From IMG/VR virus record IMGVR_UViG_2693429623_000007: a stretch of 7,648 nt of DNA; one strand, 5' to 3'. Positions 2,180 to 7,648 of this stretch are shown here, piece after piece. The stretch comes from a virus. Lineage: Duplodnaviria > Heunggongvirae > Uroviricota > Caudoviricetes. The translations under genes were made by a program, and so were the position numbers. Under the pieces are notes generated by a model. That model ran no database searches, was not told the origin of the DNA, and worked only from the letters and a program-made list of their open reading frames with translations. Each line of letters begins with the position of its first letter. Position 1 is the first letter of the stretch.

Positions 2180-2302
2180 ATCAGTTCGGTTGTTACAGAC
2201 GCCTTCCGCAGTGAAGGCTTTTTAATTTGTGGTAATGGGCGGCTGGTGGGTGTTAGCGGCACCTGCCAGCCATCTGCTCATGCGTTGGGGTCACAAGCAA
2301 AC
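2180..2302 (+). repeat. Copy 3 (partial) of the duplicated unit: last 11 codons of the 65-aa gene plus downstream
   Basis: atcagttcggttgttacagacgccttccgcagtgaaggc... matches 1102-1181 and 1989-2112. Confidence 0.8.
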
Positions 2303-2364
2303 CTCAGGCCCATCTGCTTTGCGCAAAAGCGGTATGAGCCTATCAGAGAAGTGCTTATTGATCT

Positions 2365-3070
2365 ATGGCCAATACTGTAAAAATATCCAGTTGTGAGTTA
2401 ATCAACGCTGATTGCCTGGAATTTATCCAGACCTTACCGGAAAATTCTGTCGATCTGATAGTCACAGACCCGCCATACTTTAAAGTGAAGCCCGAGGGCT
2501 GGGATAACCAGTGGGAGGGCGACGATGATTACCTGAAATGGCTGGACCAGTGTCTGGCGCAGTTCTGGCGGGTGCTGAAACCTGCCGGAAGTCTTTACCT
2601 GTTCTGTGGTCATCGCCTGGCATCTGATATCGAAATCATGATGCGTGAACGCTTCAGTGTGCTGAACCATATTATCTGGGCGAAGCCGTCCGGACGCTGG
2701 AACGGATGCAACAAGGAAAGCCTGCGGGCGTATTTCCCCGCCACAGAGCGCATTCTGTTCGCGGAACATTATCAGGGGCCGTATCGTCCGAAAGATGCCG
2801 GGTATGCGGCGAAGGGCAGTGCACTGAAACAGCATGTGATGGCCCCGCTGATTTCTTACTTTCGTGATGCGCGAGCTGCCCTGGGGATAACGGCAAAACA
2901 GATTGCAGATGCCACAGGAAAGAAAAACATGGTGTCGCACTGGTTCAGTGCCGGTCAGTGGCAGTTGCCGAATGAAAGCGATTATCTGAAATTACAGGCG
3001 CTGTTTGCCCGGGTGGCAGAAGAGAAGCATCGGCGTGGTGAACTGGAAAAGCTCCACCACCAGCTGGTGG
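2365..3070 (+). CDS. DNA N6-adenine methyltransferase, beta class, N-terminal 235 codons (3' end interrupted by N gap)
   Basis: MANTVKISSCELINADCLEFIQTLPENSVDLIVTDPPYF...; catalytic motif IV DPPY at 2467-2478. Track ORF 2365-3102 runs through the gap. The gene continues in the segment 3694-4037. Confidence 0.8.
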
Positions 3071-3081
3071 NNNNNNNNNNN
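3071..3081. other. Assembly gap (11 N)
   Basis: Run of n inside the methyltransferase reading frame. Confidence 1.
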
Positions 3082-3150
3082 TGGCACAGGGGCGCGAGCT
3101 AAAACAGCACGTCATGGCCCCGCTGATTTCTTACTTTCGTGATGCGCGTA
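3082..3150 (+). pseudogene. Isolated 69-bp internal fragment of a divergent methyltransferase allele, between two N runs
   Basis: Matches 2811-2878 with several substitutions in the first 30 bp; the segment ...catggccccgctgatttcttactttcgtgatgcgcg is shared. Confidence 0.6.
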
Positions 3151-3179
3151 NNNNNNNNNNNNNNNNNNNNNNNNNNNNN
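3151..3179. other. Assembly gap (29 N)
   Basis: Run of n. Confidence 1.
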
Positions 3180-4037
3180 GCGCAGTTCTGGCGGGTGCTG
3201 AAACCTGCCGGAAGTCTTTACCTGTTCTGTGGTCATCGCCTGGCATCTGATATCGAAATCATGATGCGTGAACGCTTCAGTGTGCTGAACCATATTATCT
3301 GGGCGAAGCCGTCCGGACGCTGGAACGGATGCAACAAGGAAAGCCTGCGGGCGTATTTCCCCGCCACAGAGCGCATTCTGTTCGCGGAACATTATCAGGG
3401 GCCGTATCGTCCGAAAGATGCCGGGTATGCGGCGAAGGGCAGTGCACTGAAACAGCATGTGATGGCCCCGCTGATTTCTTACTTTCGTGATGCGCGAGCT
3501 GCCCTGGGGATAACGGCAAAACAGATTGCAGATGCCACAGGAAAGAAAAACATGGTGTCGCACTGGTTCAGTGCCGGTCAGTGGCAGTTGCCGAATGAAA
3601 GCGATTATCTGAAATTACAGGCGCTGTTTGCCCGGGTGGCAGAAGAGAAGCATCGGCGTGGTGAACTGGAAAAGCTCCACCACCAGCTGGTGGATACGTA
3701 TACCTCACTGAACCGGCAGTATGCGGAGCTGCTGAGTGAATATAAACATCTGCGGCGGTATTTTGGCGTGACGGTGCAGGTGCCGTATACCGATGTGTGG
3801 ACGCATAAACCGGTGCAGTTCTATCCCGGGAAACATCCGTGCGAAAAACCGGCAGAAATGCTGCAGCAGATAATCAACGCGAGCAGTCGTCCGGGAGACC
3901 TGGTTGCAGATTTTTTTATGGGTTCAGGTTCAACGGTAAAAGCGGCGATGGCACTGGGGCGTTGTGCGATTGGTGTTGAGCTGGAGACCGGACGTTTTGA
4001 ACAGACAGTCAGGGAAGTTCAGGATTTAATCGTTTGA
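3180..4037 (+). CDS. DNA N6-adenine methyltransferase, beta class, codon approx. 65 to stop (5' truncated by N gap)
   Basis: 3180-3693 appears identical to 2557-3070 (514 bp). The C-terminal part carries the AdoMet-binding motif I, FFMGSGST. Motif IV before motif I is the beta-class order. Stop TGA 4035-4037. Reconstructed full gene is about 349 aa. Confidence 0.8.
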   Translation, partial: AQFWRVLKPAGSLYLFCGHRLASDIEIMMRERFSVLNHIIWAKPSGRWNGCNKESLRAYFPATERILFAEHYQGPYRPKDAGYAAKGSALKQHVMAPLISYFRDARAALGITAKQIADATGKKNMVSHWFSAGQWQLPNESDYLKLQALFARVAEEKHRRGELEKLHHQLVDTYTSLNRQYAELLSEYKHLRRYFGVTVQVPYTDVWTHKPVQFYPGKHPCEKPAEMLQQIINASSRPGDLVADFFMGSGSTVKAAMALGRCAIGVELETGRFEQTVREVQDLIV

Positions 4038-4098
4038 AACGGATGAGATTGCAGAATTAATTACGCACCATTATTATTCTGCTCCCGGCCCTTTAGCN

Positions 4099-4395
4099 CT
4101 GCGGCGGTATTTTGGCGTGACGGTGCAGGTGCCGTATACCGATGTGTGGACGCATAAACCGGTGCAGTTCTATCCCGGGAAACATCCGTGCGAAAAACCG
4201 GCAGAAATGCTGCAGCAGATAATCAGCGCTAGCAGTCGTCCGGGTGACCTGATTGCAGATTTTTTCATGGGGTTGGGTTCGACAGTGAAAGCGGCACTGG
4301 CGCTCGGGCGTCGTGCAATTGGCGTTGAGCTGGAGACTGAACGTTTTGAGCAGACGGTTCGGGAAGTACAGGATTTAGTCAGCCAGAACGGATGA
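4099..4395 (+). CDS. Methyltransferase C-terminal fragment, second allele (5' truncated at the junction n at 4098)
   Basis: In-frame from 4099. Product ...VTVQVPYTDVWTHKPVQFYPGKHPCEKPAEMLQQIISASSRPGDLIADFFMGLGSTVKAALALGRRAIGVELETERFEQTVREVQDLVSQNG* differs from the 3751-4037 allele by scattered substitutions and a 5-aa longer tail. Confidence 0.7.
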   Translation: MRRYFGVTVQVPYTDVWTHKPVQFYPGKHPCEKPAEMLQQIISASSRPGDLIADFFMGLGSTVKAALALGRRAIGVELETERFEQTVREVQDLVSQNG

Positions 4396-4435
4396 TATTG
4401 AAGAATTAATTACGCGTCGTTATTATGCGGCTCCC

Positions 4436-4511
4436 GGCCCTTTAGCTCAGTGGTGAGAGCGAGCGACTCATAATCGCCAGGTCGCTGGTTCAAATCCAGC
4501 AAGGGCCACCA
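4436..4511 (+). tRNA. tRNA-Ile2/Met, anticodon CAU (ileX/ileZ-like)
   Basis: Hand-folded cloverleaf: acceptor GGCCCTT/AAGGGCC, D arm GCTC-AGTGGTGA-GAGC, anticodon loop CTCATAA, T arm GCTGG-TTCAAAT-CCAGC, discriminator A, encoded CCA. Resembles E. coli ileX as recalled. Confidence 0.85.
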
Positions 4512-4518
4512 TCACATA

Positions 4519-4595
4519 CCGCCATTAACTCATCAGGATAGAGCGCCAGCCTTCGAAGCTGGTTGCGCGGGGTTCGAGTCCTCGATGGCGGTCCA
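4519..4595 (+). tRNA. tRNA-Arg, anticodon UCG
   Basis: Acceptor CCGCCAT/ATGGCGG (7 bp), anticodon stem CCAGC/GCTGG with loop CTTCGAA, T loop TTCGAGT, encoded CCA. The D stem has one A-C mismatch. Confidence 0.75.
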
Positions 4596-4608
4596 TTATC
4601 TGCATCAT

Positions 4609-4685
4609 GCGTTGTTAGCTCAGCCGGACAGAGCAATTGCCTTCTAAGCAATCGGTCACTGGTTCGAATCCAGTACAACGCGCCA
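4609..4685 (+). tRNA. tRNA-Arg, anticodon UCU
   Basis: Acceptor GCGTTGT/ACAACGC, D arm GCTC-AGCCGGACA-GAGC, anticodon stem ATTGC/GCAAT with loop CTTCTAA, T arm ACTGG-TTCGAAT-CCAGT, encoded CCA. Confidence 0.85.
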
Positions 4686-4698
4686 CGCTTATTTTTCC

Positions 4699-4723
4699 AG
4701 GCTCGCTTCGGCGGGCCTTTTTC
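4699..4723 (+). terminator. Rho-independent terminator after the tRNA cluster
   Basis: Stem aggctcgc (4699-4706), loop ttcg, stem gcgggcct (4711-4718, one G-U pair), then T-run to 4722. Confidence 0.55.
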
Positions 4724-4860
4724 ATATCCGCGCCACGCCCGGCGCACATCAAAAAACCACAGAGCCTTTCAGGGGTGAGCTTACGGGATGGTCAGTGTGA
4801 CTTTCTCTGTGGGCTGGTCACCCCCGGGCGCAGGCTCACCCACTAAAAGGAAAAGTCACG

Positions 4861-5286
4861 ATGTTTGGTATTTTCAAAAAGAAAACCCGCAAGGCCATTA
4901 CCGAGGTGAAGAAGATGGAGAACCGTGACGCAGTGGAGGCGACCGTCTGGGGCGCGTACTCCATTGCATACGCTGACGGCACCTGTGACGCGAAAGAAAT
5001 CGCGGTACTGGAAAAAACCATTGCAGCACTTCCTGTCTTTGCGCCGTTCTCCGGTGAGATTGCACAAATGAGTGCAAATATCCGCGCCCGTTATGAAGCG
5101 TCGCCGCGTTCTGCCAATGCCGAAGCTCTTCGTCAGCTGGCTGATGTTGCCGGTACTGATGATGCAGTTAATGTGCTGTGCCTGTGTCTGGATATCGCTG
5201 ACCAGGACGGTATCGCTCAGGAAGAAGAAGCGCAACTGAAGAAAATTGCGCAGGCGCTGCAGTTGCCGCTGGAGCAGTACCTGTGA
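4861..5286 (+). CDS. TerB-like (tellurite-resistance TerB family) domain protein, 141 aa
   Basis: ATG 4861 with aaaaggaaaag upstream. Two internal half-repeats of the form A-x-A-DG...E...L..IA.AL (AYADGTCDAKEIAVLEKTIAAL and DIADQDGIAQEEEAQLKKIAQAL), the arrangement I recall for TerB. Family call is from memory. Confidence 0.55.
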   Translation: MFGIFKKKTRKAITEVKKMENRDAVEATVWGAYSIAYADGTCDAKEIAVLEKTIAALPVFAPFSGEIAQMSANIRARYEASPRSANAEALRQLADVAGTDDAVNVLCLCLDIADQDGIAQEEEAQLKKIAQALQLPLEQYL

Positions 5287-5435
5287 AAAGTGCGCGCCTT
5301 GTGCTGGCTGTCATCCTGTTGTTTCTGGTAGTGGTGGTTGATTTCACCGGACGACTGATGTCGGTGCTGGCAGATGGTGTGCTGGTGGCGATGGCGCTGG
5401 TCGTGCTCCGGCCTTTACTGCGTAAATCTGAATAA
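5283..5435 (+). CDS. Small hydrophobic protein (50 aa), putative membrane peptide
   Basis: GTG 5283 overlaps the upstream stop as GTGA; ggag lies 10 nt upstream. Product VKSARLVLAVILLFLVVVVDFTGRLMSVLADGVLVAMALVVLRPLLRKSE*. Below the 60-aa cutoff of the ORF track. Speculative. Confidence 0.35.
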   Translation: MKSARLVLAVILLFLVVVVDFTGRLMSVLADGVLVAMALVVLRPLLRKSE

Positions 5436-5444
5436 CATCACACA

Positions 5445-5481
5445 AAAGGCATCTGCGGATGCCTTTGACGGGGTGTTTTTT
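5445..5481 (+). terminator. Perfect 9-bp hairpin followed by a T-run; putative terminator or attenuator before the lysis genes
   Basis: aaaggcatc (5445-5453), loop tgcg, gatgccttt (5458-5466), then gacggggtg and six T's (5476-5481). Confidence 0.4.
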
Positions 5482-5520
5482 ACGGGTCGCTGGTGGCCCT
5501 TTTTTATTTTCAGGAGGAAG

Positions 5521-5914
5521 TATGTCTGAACCCTTATCCGGTTCCGGCACGGCTGCGGCGCTGGGGGGCGCGACGGTATTCGGGCTGTTTACCGGGATGG
5601 ATTTCGGGATTGTGTTTGGCGCGTTCGCCGGGGCGTTATTTGTGGCAACGATGCCGCAGTCACTTTCAGTCTGGCGCGTGGTGGCGCATTTTCTGGTGTC
5701 GTTTATTGTCGGCGTGCTGGGAGCGCGTGTGCTGTCAGCCTGGATTGCATCAAAAACAGGGTATGACGGTACATCAGCAGATGCGCTTTGCGCGGTGCTG
5801 GTCTCGGTGGTGTCGGTGAAGATTCTCTCGTTCATCCACCAGCAGGATATTGCATCGCTGGTGTCCGGTGTGTTCTCCCGCCTGCGGGGTGGAGGAGGCG
5901 GCAATGTTAAGTAA
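5521..5914 (+). CDS. Putative holin-like membrane protein (131 aa)
   Basis: ATG 5521 with strong SD caggaggaag. The track start at 5459 falls inside the upstream hairpin and is rejected. Gly/Ala-rich hydrophobic segments suggest about 3 TM helices by eye. It is the first gene of a cluster ending in an M15 endolysin. Atypical for a holin: the C-terminus is GGGGGNVK rather than strongly charged. Confidence 0.5.
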
Positions 5915-6179
5915 CCTTCCCGGATTGCTGAATGTGGCGTTATGCACGGTTATCGTGCTGACGCTCTTTTTTTATCGTCGCCGTGATTCCAGACATAAAC
6001 CGCTGGTGTCATGGCTGGCCTGGCTGCTGATGCTGCTGTATGCCTTTGCGCCCCTCAGCTATCTGTGTGGTCGCCCGTTAGCAACGGGCTGGCTGGAAGT
6101 GTTTTTTAACCTGCTGTTCTGCGTGCTGGTGATACGCGCACGCGGGAACGTCACAAAAATCTTTCCATTGTTGAGGTGA
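5904..6179 (+). CDS. Lysis-associated membrane protein (92 aa; second holin or antiholin candidate)
   Basis: ATG 5904 preceded by ggaggagg; overlaps the upstream stop by 11 nt. Product MLSNLPGLLNVALCTVIVLTLFFYRRRDSRHKPLVSWLAWLLMLLYAFAPLSYLCGRPLATGWLEVFFNLLFCVLVIRARGNVTKIFPLLR*, about 3 hydrophobic segments by eye. Stop TGA 6177-6179. Confidence 0.5.
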   Translation: MLSNLPGLLNVALCTVIVLTLFFYRRRDSRHKPLVSWLAWLLMLLYAFAPLSYLCGRPLATGWLEVFFNLLFCVLVIRARGNVTKIFPLLR

Positions 6180-6181
6180 AT

Positions 6182-6559
6182 ATGCCGGGTAAATTCAGAT
6201 TCAGCCGTCGCAGTGAAAAAAATCTGGAGGGTGTCAAACCACAGCTGGTTGCTGTAGTTCGCCGTGCGCTGGAGCTGACGGAGGTTGATTTCGGTATTAC
6301 GGAAGGCCTGCGCAGTAAGTATCGCCAGAAACAGCTGGTTGCGGAAGGGAAAAGCCAGACCATGAACAGCCGCCACCTGACCGGTGATGCGGTGGATGTT
6401 GTGGCCTACATTGGCAGTCAGGTGTCATGGGAGTGGCCTCTGTACGAGAAAATCGCACAGGCATTTAAGCAGGCTGCCGCAGAGCTGGGGATCGCTATCG
6501 AATGGGGCGGGGACTGGAAAACGCTGAAAGACGGACCTCACTTTCAGCTGAAGCGATAA
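6182..6559 (+). CDS. Endolysin, peptidase M15 family (L-alanyl-D-glutamate peptidase / VanY-like)
   Basis: ATG 6182 after gaggtg (the track uses GTG 6176). Putative zinc ligands in SRHLTGDAVD (H-x6-D) and DGPHFQL, as in T5-type endolysins (recalled). Directly follows two membrane-protein genes. Confidence 0.8.
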   Translation: MPGKFRFSRRSEKNLEGVKPQLVAVVRRALELTEVDFGITEGLRSKYRQKQLVAEGKSQTMNSRHLTGDAVDVVAYIGSQVSWEWPLYEKIAQAFKQAAAELGIAIEWGGDWKTLKDGPHFQLKR

Positions 6560-6566
6560 GTAAAAC

Positions 6567-6599
6567 AAAACCCCGGCTGGGGGAACAGTCCGGGGTTTT
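6567..6599 (+). terminator. Rho-independent terminator after the endolysin (3' side abuts N gap)
   Basis: aaaaccccgg ... ccggggtttt, a GC-rich stem with a 13-nt loop and four T's before the N run. Confidence 0.5.
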
Positions 6600-6823
6600 N
6601 NNNNNNNNNNNNNNNNNNNNNNNNNNNNNNNNNNNNNNNNNNNNNNNNNNNNNNNNNNNNNNNNNNNNNNNNNNNNNNNNNNNNNNNNNNNNNNNNNNNN
6701 NNNNNNNNNNNNNNNNNNNNNNNNNNNNNNNNNNNNNNNNNNNNNNNNNNNNNNNNNNNNNNNNNNNNNNNNNNNNNNNNNNNNNNNNNNNNNNNNNNNN
6801 NNNNNNNNNNNNNNNNNNNNNNN
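6600..6823. other. Assembly gap (224 N)
   Basis: Run of n between the endolysin terminator and the lipoprotein gene. Confidence 1.
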
Positions 6824-6857
6824 GCTGTTCTGATTTGGGCTGTGCGTTGGTGGTGAT

Positions 6858-7040
6858 ATGGCGCGAAAACACTGGACACACAGAATGCCGCGAACGGCGG
6901 TGAAACGGGCACTGGTAGCGATACTGGTGCCTTTTTTATTGGTGGGGTGCGTCAGCCTGGATAAGGCGCGCCAGCTTTTCGATACCGCGTCTCAGGTCTG
7001 TGAAATTGTCGACGGTGTTCGGCAGTGTCTGCAGAACTGA
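6858..7040 (+). CDS. Small lipoprotein (60-aa precursor); possible o-spanin (Rz1-like) or other outer-membrane lipoprotein
   Basis: ATG 6858 after ggtggtga. Basic N-region MARKHWTHRMPRTAVKR, hydrophobic core ALVAILVPFLL, lipobox LVGC. Mature part of about 37 aa with two further Cys. Not proline-rich as lambda Rz1 is, so the spanin assignment is weak. Confidence 0.45.
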   Translation: MARKHWTHRMPRTAVKRALVAILVPFLLVGCVSLDKARQLFDTASQVCEIVDGVRQCLQN

Positions 7041-7214
7041 TCGCCTGTAAGAGCAGAATATTTTGCTGAAAAATGAAGGATGCGCCAGCGTCCGGTAAGC
7101 ATGAAATTCTGTGTTTGTGGCTACTCAATAAAATAAATTCTTTCTGTCGCCGCGAATACTCAAATGTTGATCAGTGCCCGGTGCGGCGACGGGCTTCGAT
7201 ATCAGGAGACGATG

Positions 7215-7608
7215 ATGGAAAAAAACAGAAAACAAACCGATTGTAATTGGTGCTGATGCTGCTCCGTTTAAGTTTGAGTTGTCTCAACTGGTGGAGATGC
7301 GTATCAGTGATGAATGGGGTGAGGTTAAAGCCCGCGCGCAGTATGCGGATGGCGAAAACCAGTACTTGATCCACTACAAAGCAGCTGATGGTCGCGCCAC
7401 GACGGAGTGGTTTGGTGAGTCAATGCTGGAAGCAACAGAAGATGATCGTCATCCGGGTTGTCCGGTATTTGCCGGTATGAAATTACCGGAAGGTGCAGTT
7501 GAACTGCAGCCGGGTGAGGTGTTCGTAATGACAGACATCATTGATGGTAAACCGCAGTATTCGCGTATTGAAATGAATAGTAAGAGTGCTCGCCTGATTC
7601 GTGAGTAA
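7215..7608 (+). CDS. Hypothetical protein, apparently frameshifted at an A7 tract (7219-7225); uninterrupted frame runs 7279/7297-7608
   Basis: ATGATG at 7212-7217 with SD aggag at 7204-7208 opens a frame that stops after 14 codons. The long frame (W K K T E N K P I V I G ... ARLIRE*, stop 7606-7608) has no ATG until 7297 and no SD for the TTG at 7279 or the ATG at 7297. Removing one A from the tract fuses the SD-preceded start to the long frame, giving about 131 aa. Confidence 0.5.
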
Positions 7609-7648
7609 CAGGCATTACAGCAGCCCTTCACTCTAAGGGGTTGCTGTA

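Follow-up and report, generated by a model that had tools for sequence, protein, structure and literature searches.

A probable ileZ-argN-argO tRNA operon in a toxin-free lambdoid prophage of Escherichia coli

Three tRNA genes between a putative promoter and a predicted terminator

We analyzed a 7,648-nucleotide stretch of DNA (referred to below as the window) from the viral record IMGVR_UViG_2693429623_000007. ARAGORN returned exactly three tRNA genes in the whole window, all on the plus strand and each with an encoded CCA end: a gene with anticodon CAU and of the Ile2 type (ileZ, 4436–4511), followed by two tRNA-Arg genes with anticodons UCG (argN, 4519–4595) and UCU (argO, 4609–4685). The spacers between them measure 7 nt (ileZ to argN) and 13 nt (argN to argO), and their scores against Rfam family RF00005 (72.5, 48.0 and 70.1 bits, respectively) all exceed its gathering score of 29 bits. 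An initial annotation, made from the sequence, had described three closely spaced tRNAs with these anticodons and encoded CCA ends, and had named a tRNA caller as the way to check them; the caller recovered each gene, with no missed call and no differing anticodon. The identical sequences in E. coli AST85 are labelled tRNA-Ile, tRNA-Arg and tRNA-Arg in RefSeq.

The cloverleaf stems of all three tRNAs are paired except at two single positions, both of which are A-C oppositions (10:25 in argN and 27:43 in ileZ). The first of these had already been noticed as a mismatch in the D stem of the Arg-UCG tRNA, and the Rfam alignment indeed places A10 opposite C25 as a non-standard pair. Additional Rfam matches at the block (Plastid-ycf2, YrlA, STnc100 and SNORD103) fall far under the gathering scores of their families; all overlap the tRNA genes with low scores and were taken as chance.

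A promoter scan identified a putative sigma-70-type promoter on the plus strand (TTGAAG-17-TATTAT, 4398–4426), followed by a G+C-rich stretch and ending ten bases 5′ of ileZ. Downstream of argO, a terminator scan predicted an intrinsic terminator on the same strand (4699–4723), consisting of an 8-bp stem with a UUCG loop (4699–4718) and then TTTTT; the boundary of 4723 originally given to the block therefore includes this element. Both features have annotated counterparts in the Stx2 phage 933W (AF125520). The 933W ‘pT putative tRNA promoter’ (5019–5047 of the compared 933W segment) maps to 4398–4426 by its offset from ileZ, and the 933W terminator described as ‘upstream of the stx genes’ (5322–5345 of that segment) coincides with 4699–4723. 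The −35 hexamer of pT is TTGAAG in the window and TTGCAG in AST85.

The window interleaves two related prophages

The window is a gapped scaffold, with runs of N at 1182, 2113–2179, 3071–3081, 3151–3179, 4098 and 6600–6823. Four of its pieces (1–1181, 3082–3150, 4099–6599 and 6824–7648) match a single prophage of E. coli AST85 at 98–100% identity, whereas the remaining three (1183–2112, 2180–3070 and 3180–4097) reach about 90–92% identity to that same AST85 region and 92–97% to whichever of the sampled loci they match best. The latter three derive from a second, related prophage; two of them overlap by 514 bp at 100% identity. The last of them ends at the contig edge with the truncated start of another cassette (4049–4097, plus strand), in which a variant of pT (TTGCAG-17-TATTAT) precedes the initial 11 nt of ileZ (4087–4097), and alignment of 3740–4110 with 4089–4460 gives 88.8% identity over 348 nt. 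The presence of this second ileZ start, ending at 4097, indicates that the source genome contains at least two copies of the cassette. Tandem duplication and insertion of an element into the methylase gene were each considered for the internal repeats upstream of the tRNAs, and both were rejected on account of the N gaps and the mapping of the pieces to two prophage lineages. Because the window interleaves two prophages, only positions 4099–6599 provide a reliable context for the tRNAs, and observations upstream of 4098 or across 6600–6823 are to be read with caution as parts of a mis-scaffolded draft.

Within the reliable segment the order is a methylase 3′ end, pT, the three tRNA genes, the terminator, a TerB-family gene, a DUF3927 gene, a second terminator, two holin genes and an M15 peptidase gene. 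The methylase remnant (4099–4395, plus strand) comprises 92 codons of an N6/N4 DNA methyltransferase and aligns to Pfam PF01555 at profile positions 138–220 of 221 (E 8e-23). It is cut on its 5′ side by the scaffold gap (N at 4098); the gene is full-length at the same place in AST85, where the gap-free order is DUF1133 (Q-like), a 65-amino-acid gene, the full-length methylase, the tRNAs, TerB, DUF3927, the holins and the M15 peptidase. A layout of rusA-Q-methylase-tRNAs-stx-yjhS-lysis is given for Stx phages in PMC3491183. The placement of the tRNAs between a methyltransferase gene and a cargo slot, as initially described, thus agrees with both the contiguous AST85 sequence and that published order, although the ‘methyltransferase’ of the window itself is a 3′ fragment at a contig edge.

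The first gene past the terminator encodes a 141-residue TerB-family (TciA-like, ‘tellurite resistance’) protein (4861–5286, plus strand; Pfam TerB, E 8e-8; phrog_632 over its full length, E 1e-63). The second encodes a DUF3927/TciB-like small protein of 50 residues (5283–5435, plus strand; Pfam PF13064, E 1e-14; phrog_1470, E 3e-23). PHROGs classes both as morons (phrog_632 as ‘tellurite resistance’ and phrog_1470 as ‘TciB-like’), and neither protein produced a PADLOC or an NCBIfam hit. A second predicted intrinsic terminator (5484–5504, plus strand), which is also found in AST85 (9433–9448 of the compared AST85 segment), closes this moron ahead of the holin genes. The TerB-like gene occupies the slot in which Stx phages carry stxA, and no open reading frame scanned in the window matched a Shiga-toxin family. 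With a TerB/TciA-like and TciB-like moron rather than stx as its cargo, the element is not an Stx phage. The organization initially ascribed to Stx phages is therefore shared as regards the cassette and the layout of the cargo slot, but not as regards the cargo, since stxA and stxB are absent and TerB-like and DUF3927 genes are present instead.

The block corresponds to a known cassette of Stx2-type phages

The three tRNA genes of 933W are annotated as ileZ, argN and argO and have the same anticodons, order and strand as those of the window. The block is 92.4% identical between the two, with identities of 100%, 94.8% and 98.7% for the respective tRNAs and with pT and the terminator at the same positions, which bears out the earlier assignment of the triplet to the ileZ-argN-argO set of Stx phages. 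In Stx2 phages, as here, the cassette follows Q (and in many cases also a DNA methylase) and precedes the cargo and lysis genes (PMC3491183). In contrast, 933W carries stx2AB where the window carries its TerB/TciA-like and TciB-like moron, and the lysis genes of 933W are of the S/R/Rz type whereas those of the window are phiP27-like (two holins and an M15 peptidase).

Phage phiP27, which is an Stx2e phage, was the best phage match to the window as a whole (90% identity over 68% of its length). It shares with the window the same methylase, the holin-holin-endolysin genes and the placement of ileZ and argO; it differs in carrying stx2e and in having only ileZ and argO annotated, with a 101-nt stretch at the place of argN. 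Escherichia phage PhiR49_2 is 97.6% identical to the window over 4099–4722 and contains the same 92-codon methylase remnant. In the non-Stx prophage of AST85 (NZ_AP043644), the three tRNAs are 100% identical to those of the window (including the A10 form of argN) and the identity across 4100–6599 is 98%. Non-Stx E. coli prophages for which the cassette is annotated in RefSeq include AST85 and ETEC-type strains.

Of 5426 complete E. coli genomes, 2290 contain the block over at least 80% of its length, in up to 13 places per genome, and it is 92–97% identical to sequences in about 290 phage records, most of them from Stx2-converting phages. The 329-nt block (4396–4724) had no match at 100% identity in the same 5426 genomes. 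A tRNA-Ile-Arg-Arg structure beside stx2 is described in PMC13641118, PMC7946995 and PMC3491183. The cassette is thus already known: its annotation goes back to the genome record of 933W, and RefSeq annotates it routinely in thousands of E. coli genomes. Since it is known and extremely common in E. coli prophages, its identification here is correct but ordinary, and it matters little as a discovery; the first reading of the sequence was correct, including the anticodons and the mismatch in the D stem.

The argN gene contains a rare mismatch in its D stem

Both arginine tRNAs contain A20 (each reading G18-G19-A20) and C35, which are major identity elements for ArgRS. By these elements and their NCG and NCU anticodons, argN and argO are both predicted to be tRNA-Arg species that would be charged with arginine. 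The anticodon and entire anticodon loop of argO are the same as those of K-12 argU (72.7% identity overall), and its predicted codons are AGA and AGG. Position 37 of argO is A in the window and G in 933W, and the copy in the window is the major allele among the IMG/VR loci (61 copies). Its neighbor argN is predicted to decode CGA and probably CGG; of the three tRNAs it departs furthest from the canonical form, having U15, a C1-G72 pair and U73 as its discriminator base. It is at most 66% identical to any of the K-12 arginine tRNAs with which it was compared (ACG, CCG and UCU), and E. coli is not known to have an arginine tRNA with a UCG anticodon.

The argN of the window differs from the commonest allele by a single change (G10 to A), and from that of 933W by the same change plus three loop differences. 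The A10 allele was found in 0 of 122 sampled loci. Among the 5426 complete E. coli genomes it occurs in exact form in four (AST85, E200139, E400634 and E600003), out of 1114 that carry argN. Fixation of this allele in each of four separate complete genomes rules out a sequencing error. The A10-C25 opposition is thus a real mutation, which is derived, rare, lineage-specific and atypical of the family.

The calculated energy of the argN cloverleaf is −24.6 kcal/mol with A10 versus −28.3 kcal/mol with G10, corresponding to a cost of 3.7 kcal/mol for the mismatch. The Rfam score of the window copy (48.0 bits) is 6.8 bits lower than that of 933W argN (54.8 bits), which also differs from it at the three loop positions. 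The predicted minimum-energy fold is a cloverleaf for G10 argN and departs from it for A10 argN; however, such folding also fails to return a cloverleaf for ileZ and argO, both of which are canonical. It is therefore non-diagnostic, and the cloverleaf energies and Rfam scores were compared instead.

These properties could indicate that argN in the window is a decaying or non-functional allele, and that the working unit is a doublet of ileZ and argO as in phiP27. In addition to the broken D stem, the less favorable cloverleaf energy, the lower Rfam score and the altered minimum-energy fold, the scarcity of the A10 allele is in keeping with such decay, and loss of a single tRNA is frequent elsewhere (in phiP27, as judged by its annotation, and in 25 of the approximately 120 sampled loci, which lack one call). 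Against it, the score of argN far exceeds the Rfam threshold of 29 bits, ARAGORN recovers the gene and RefSeq labels it tRNA-Arg; it retains three D-stem pairs, its anticodon, A20, C35 and all of its other stems; the folding comparison does not discriminate; and an allele fixed in four genomes is no sequencing error. We regard this reading as unlikely, while giving it some weight. The A10-C25 mismatch may weaken argN, and the window copy possibly works poorly.

Codons assigned to the three tRNAs are enriched in related prophages

We counted the codons ATA, AGA, AGG, CGA and CGG, expressed per 1000 codons. In a K-12 chromosomal sample of 19 genes the frequencies were 3.1, 0.9, 0.5, 3.3 and 5.4, respectively (sum 13.3). 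The corresponding values were 8.7, 5.2, 5.7, 7.4 and 10.1 for the AST85 prophage segment (sum 37.0), 8.2, 7.3, 5.4, 5.4 and 8.3 for all genes of phiP27 (sum 34.5), and 15.7, 11.1, 6.1, 11.1 and 8.1 for the 933W segment (sum 52.1). Across the prophage gene sets that were counted, the five-codon sum ranged from 29 to 52 per 1000, versus 13.3 in the host sample. Compared with host genes, related prophage genes use the codons served by the cassette 2–9 times as often, with AGA and AGG together about 8–9 times commoner than in the host sample.

The distribution of these codons within the phages bears on which genes the tRNAs might serve. The stxA2 gene contains 15 ATA and 6 AGA codons in 319. Not one of the five codons occurs in the TerB-like gene beside the tRNAs in the window, and few occur in the lysis genes. 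In AST85, the five-codon frequency is 43.9 per 1000 upstream of the tRNAs versus 28.6 downstream. Given a TerB gene without any of the five codons and an AST85 excess that is larger upstream, a version of the supply hypothesis that is confined to late genes and cargo fails to explain retention of the cassette here. The supply of rare-codon tRNAs across the whole phage, on the other hand, is supported. The initial proposal of rare-codon supplementation therefore stands as a phage-wide effect but not as one directed to the cargo, which uses none of these codons, or to the late genes, in which the excess is no stronger than in early ones. A non-Stx prophage whose cargo lacks the supplied codons weakens the idea that the tRNAs serve toxin genes, and favors a phage-wide or host-wide role.

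The tRNA bodies are conserved between variable flanks

Conservation was assessed in a sample of 120 IMG/VR loci that hold the 3′ 25-mer of argN. Ninety of the complete loci contain the full CAU-UCG-UCU triplet; as about a fifth of the sampled loci (the 25 noted above) have lost one tRNA, the full set is dispensable. Nucleotide diversity was calculated from 87 full triplets representing 59 haplotypes, leaving out loci in which one tRNA had been replaced (which inflate diversity) and, for argN, restricting the calculation to the 5′ 52 nt, as the last 25 nt served as the search key. The resulting values were 0.009 for ileZ, 0.010 for argO and 0.034 for the 5′ part of argN, as compared to 0.231 for the methylase 3′ end, 0.151 for the leader, 0.208 for the 13-nt spacer, 0.152 for the trailer and 0.505 for the region just downstream. 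Polymorphisms in argN lie in loops or at a C/U site where pairing with G is retained. Two loci have G-C instead of A-U as the 31:39 pair of ileZ (one of these loci also has an unpaired change at 67), and a single, much-altered locus has G-C instead of C-G as the argO pair listed as 51:65 (Sprinzl 50:64); pairing is kept in both cases.

When species-representative genomes were searched with the argN 25-mer, only a decayed copy in Salmonella diarizonae and one complete triplet, in a metagenome-assembled genome, were recovered, which is too sparse to describe taxonomic spread.

This pattern allowed us to weigh the idea that the cassette confers no translational benefit here, and is either a hitchhiker or a patch of homology by which lambdoid recombination exchanges the contents of the cargo slot. 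Just past the terminator (at 4734 and 4722, respectively), homology with 933W and PhiR49_2 is lost, and the first gene past argO differs among the sampled loci: a TerB-like gene in 26 (the commonest class, which includes the window), Stx2A in 20, a 142-residue lipoprotein-like protein in 14, a holin in 8, a YjhS-like protein in 7, and others. The cassette is thus an unchanging left border to a slot whose content varies, and the TerB cargo uses none of the codons of the three tRNAs. However, a pure homology patch would not be expected to have tRNA bodies 15–25 times less variable than the 13-nt spacer, leader and trailer, nor polymorphism in argN that is limited to loops and a G-pairing C/U site. 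The conservation of the tRNA bodies and the pair-keeping changes point instead to purifying selection on tRNA function, and we consider a passive role improbable. A role as a recombination anchor is compatible with tRNA function, and the two can coexist.

A more specialized benefit might come from counter-defence, with the tRNAs acting as spares that replace host tRNAs cut by anticodon nucleases such as colicin D or those of abortive-infection systems. Some phage tRNAs do escape tRNA-cleaving defences, and colicin D targets arginine tRNAs; nothing at this locus itself favors the idea, the description ‘resistance to colicin’ carried by the family of the TciB-like neighbor being a label only. 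Such a role is very improbable because the anticodon loops of ileZ and argO match those of host ileX and argU exactly, without loop changes of the kind that evade nucleases; in addition, all three specificities read rare codons, which the supply hypothesis explains directly, and the cargo has no PADLOC defence hit.

The CAU tRNA resembles lysidine-dependent Ile2

The tRNA with a CAU anticodon had initially been read as either Ile2 or Met. It is 89.5% identical to K-12 ileX, with which its anticodon loop is identical, versus 67.5% to metT/metU. Its acceptor stem consists of G1-C72, G2-C71, C3-G70, C4-G69, C5-G68, U6-A67 and U7-A66. The C4-G69 and C5-G68 pairs are positive determinants for E. 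coli TilS (PMC1635315, PMC11947777), and metT/metU have U4-A69 and A5-U68 at these positions. The C6-G67 pair of ileX is replaced by U6-A67 in ileZ, which is a compensated change. The A-C opposition at 27:43 is found in the major allele and in 933W, whereas ileX has G27-U43; the ileZ of the window is itself the major allele (97 of 114 copies among the IMG/VR loci).

The similarity to ileX and the two TilS determinants, unlike metT/metU, make the Ile2 half of the initial reading well supported, and the tRNA would accordingly belong to the lysidine-dependent, AUA-reading type, with lysidine formation and isoleucine charging predicted from these features. That it is instead an elongator tRNA-Met, as ARAGORN labels it from the anticodon alone and as several phage and GenBank records have it (PMC7946995 among the sources), is scarcely credible in view of these same identities and acceptor-stem pairs and of its annotation as tRNA-Ile in RefSeq and in the 933W record.

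A model for the cassette in lysogeny and after induction

The best explanation of the block, to which we assign a probability of roughly 0.8, is that it represents the ileZ-argN-argO cassette of lambdoid (Stx2-type) phages, carried as a self-contained small operon by a toxin-free E. coli prophage of the phiP27/AST85 kind. As part of that explanation, the late-operon leader houses the cassette, with the Q antiterminator and methylase genes on one side and the variable cargo slot and lysis genes on the other. Speaking against it are the broken D stem of argN, the loss of one tRNA from about a fifth of the sampled loci, and the pattern of codon use in the TerB-like gene, the lysis genes and the AST85 segment. 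AST85 contains several plus-strand terminators between its Q-like gene and its holins, an arrangement that fits a design of Q-dependent read-through.

Given the observed gene identities, homology, promoter and terminator motifs, tRNA-body conservation and codon excess, a scheme can be proposed for the expression, modification, charging and translational benefit of the cassette. In a lysogen, pT would be transcribed constitutively at a low level, with transcription stopping at the terminator. Once the prophage is induced, RNA polymerase modified by Q would pass through the cassette and the terminators, and the tRNAs would be cut from the abundant late transcript. Host TilS would convert C34 of ileZ to lysidine and thereby allow AUA to be read; argN would provide an additional decoder of CGA and CGG, of a type absent from the host; and argO would supplement argU in the reading of AGA and AGG. 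Together they would raise decoding capacity for codons that are several-fold commoner in horizontally acquired phage genes than in host genes. The literature searched yielded no experiment that tests the cassette.

As a more speculative suggestion, which we hold to be doubtful, toxin-free prophages might keep the cassette for a reason unrelated to the neighboring cargo. One option is a lysogenic-conversion trait, in which constitutive, pT-driven tRNAs would raise the capacity of the host to express horizontally acquired genes rich in AUA, AGA and CGA. A second is that the A10 form of argN is a snapshot of decay, and might be the first step of the repeated reduction from triplet to doublet that is seen in phiP27 and in about a fifth of the loci.

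The position of the cassette has parallels in other lambdoid phages. SfI, Sf6, ST64T and P21 carry Asn-GUU and/or Thr-UGU tRNA genes downstream of Q, for which a rare-codon rationale has been put forward (PMC3636060). These tRNAs occupy the same niche between Q and the lysis genes as the cassette described here, but have other specificities and unrelated sequences.

The window is a scaffold of two prophages

The window is a gapped scaffold in which pieces of two related lambdoid prophages are interleaved. Runs of N, ranging from 1 to 224 bases in length, interrupt it at 1182, 2113–2179, 3071–3081, 3151–3179, 4098 and 6600–6823. The pieces at 1–1181, 3082–3150, 4099–6599 and 6824–7648 are 98–100% identical to a toxin-free prophage of E. 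coli strain AST85, while a second prophage lineage is the source of those at 1183–2112, 2180–3070 and 3180–4097. The seeming tandem copies of a methylase gene and of a 65-aa gene within the window are assembly artefacts.

The window contains a 514-bp direct repeat (2557–3070 versus 3180–3693, 100% identity), the two pieces of which are overlapping contigs of a single methylase gene that the scaffolder left unmerged. The homology of Escherichia phage PhiR49_2 (locus L002, position 5720) to the methylase gene stops exactly at the contig edge at 4099, so that the phage retains the same 92-codon remnant, annotated there as ‘DNA adenine methylase’. The coincidence of these two endpoints hints that recombination has repeatedly broken the methylase gene at this point.

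A 174-aa open reading frame (1077–1601) matches ‘Antitermination protein Q’ (PF03589), but spans the N at 1182 and is therefore chimeric, joining sequence from two contigs. Two different Q-type genes are thus visible in the window, a DUF1133 gene (152–706) and the PF03589-type gene, which derive from the two prophages. The 65-aa gene (1826–2023 and 938–1135; phrog_331, with a weak match to a TrmB-like helix-turn-helix) is conserved: in both prophage lineages it separates the Q-type gene from the methylase gene, and the Stx2e phage phiP27 has it there too (L23).

Variation within the tRNA triplet

The anticodon stem of ileZ, the first of the three tRNA genes (ileZ, argN and argO), is topped by an A27–C43 mismatch (window positions 4462 and 4478), at the position where the host Ile2 tRNA gene ileX has a G27–U43 wobble pair. 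The mismatch belongs to the major allele, which the Stx2 phage 933W, the AST85 prophage and PhiR49_2 also carry, and neither position varies among 87 full triplets. Position 37 of argO, which adjoins the anticodon, is an A in the window (4646) and in the major allele, whereas 933W has a G (locus L003, position 5269), as do 12 of the loci sampled. A37 is the base that the host modifies in tRNAs decoding codons that start with A.

The ileZ-argN-argO triplet often decays. Only ileZ and argO are annotated as tRNAs in phiP27, separated by 101 nt (locus L131, 17234–17334), and the copy in Salmonella diarizonae (locus L009, 2762–2835) has a broken anticodon arm and is called as ‘tRNA-???’. Among the 120 IMG/VR loci sampled by means of a 25-mer from the 3' end of argN, about 25 are short of one of the three tRNA calls or show a different call, for example Arg-GCG or Thr-CGT.

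The slot downstream of argO

A moron carrying TerB/TciA-like and DUF3927/TciB-like genes (4861–5435) lies between terminators at 4699–4718 and 5484–5499. We recognized no sigma-70 promoter belonging to this moron, and a codon count of its TerB gene found none of the five rare codons (ATA, AGA, AGG, CGA and CGG) read by the three tRNAs. Across the same 120 loci the slot 3' of argO has at least five recurrent alternative contents: a TerB-like gene, Stx2A, a 142-aa lipoprotein-like protein, a YjhS/NanS-like protein of 653 aa, or a holin directly.
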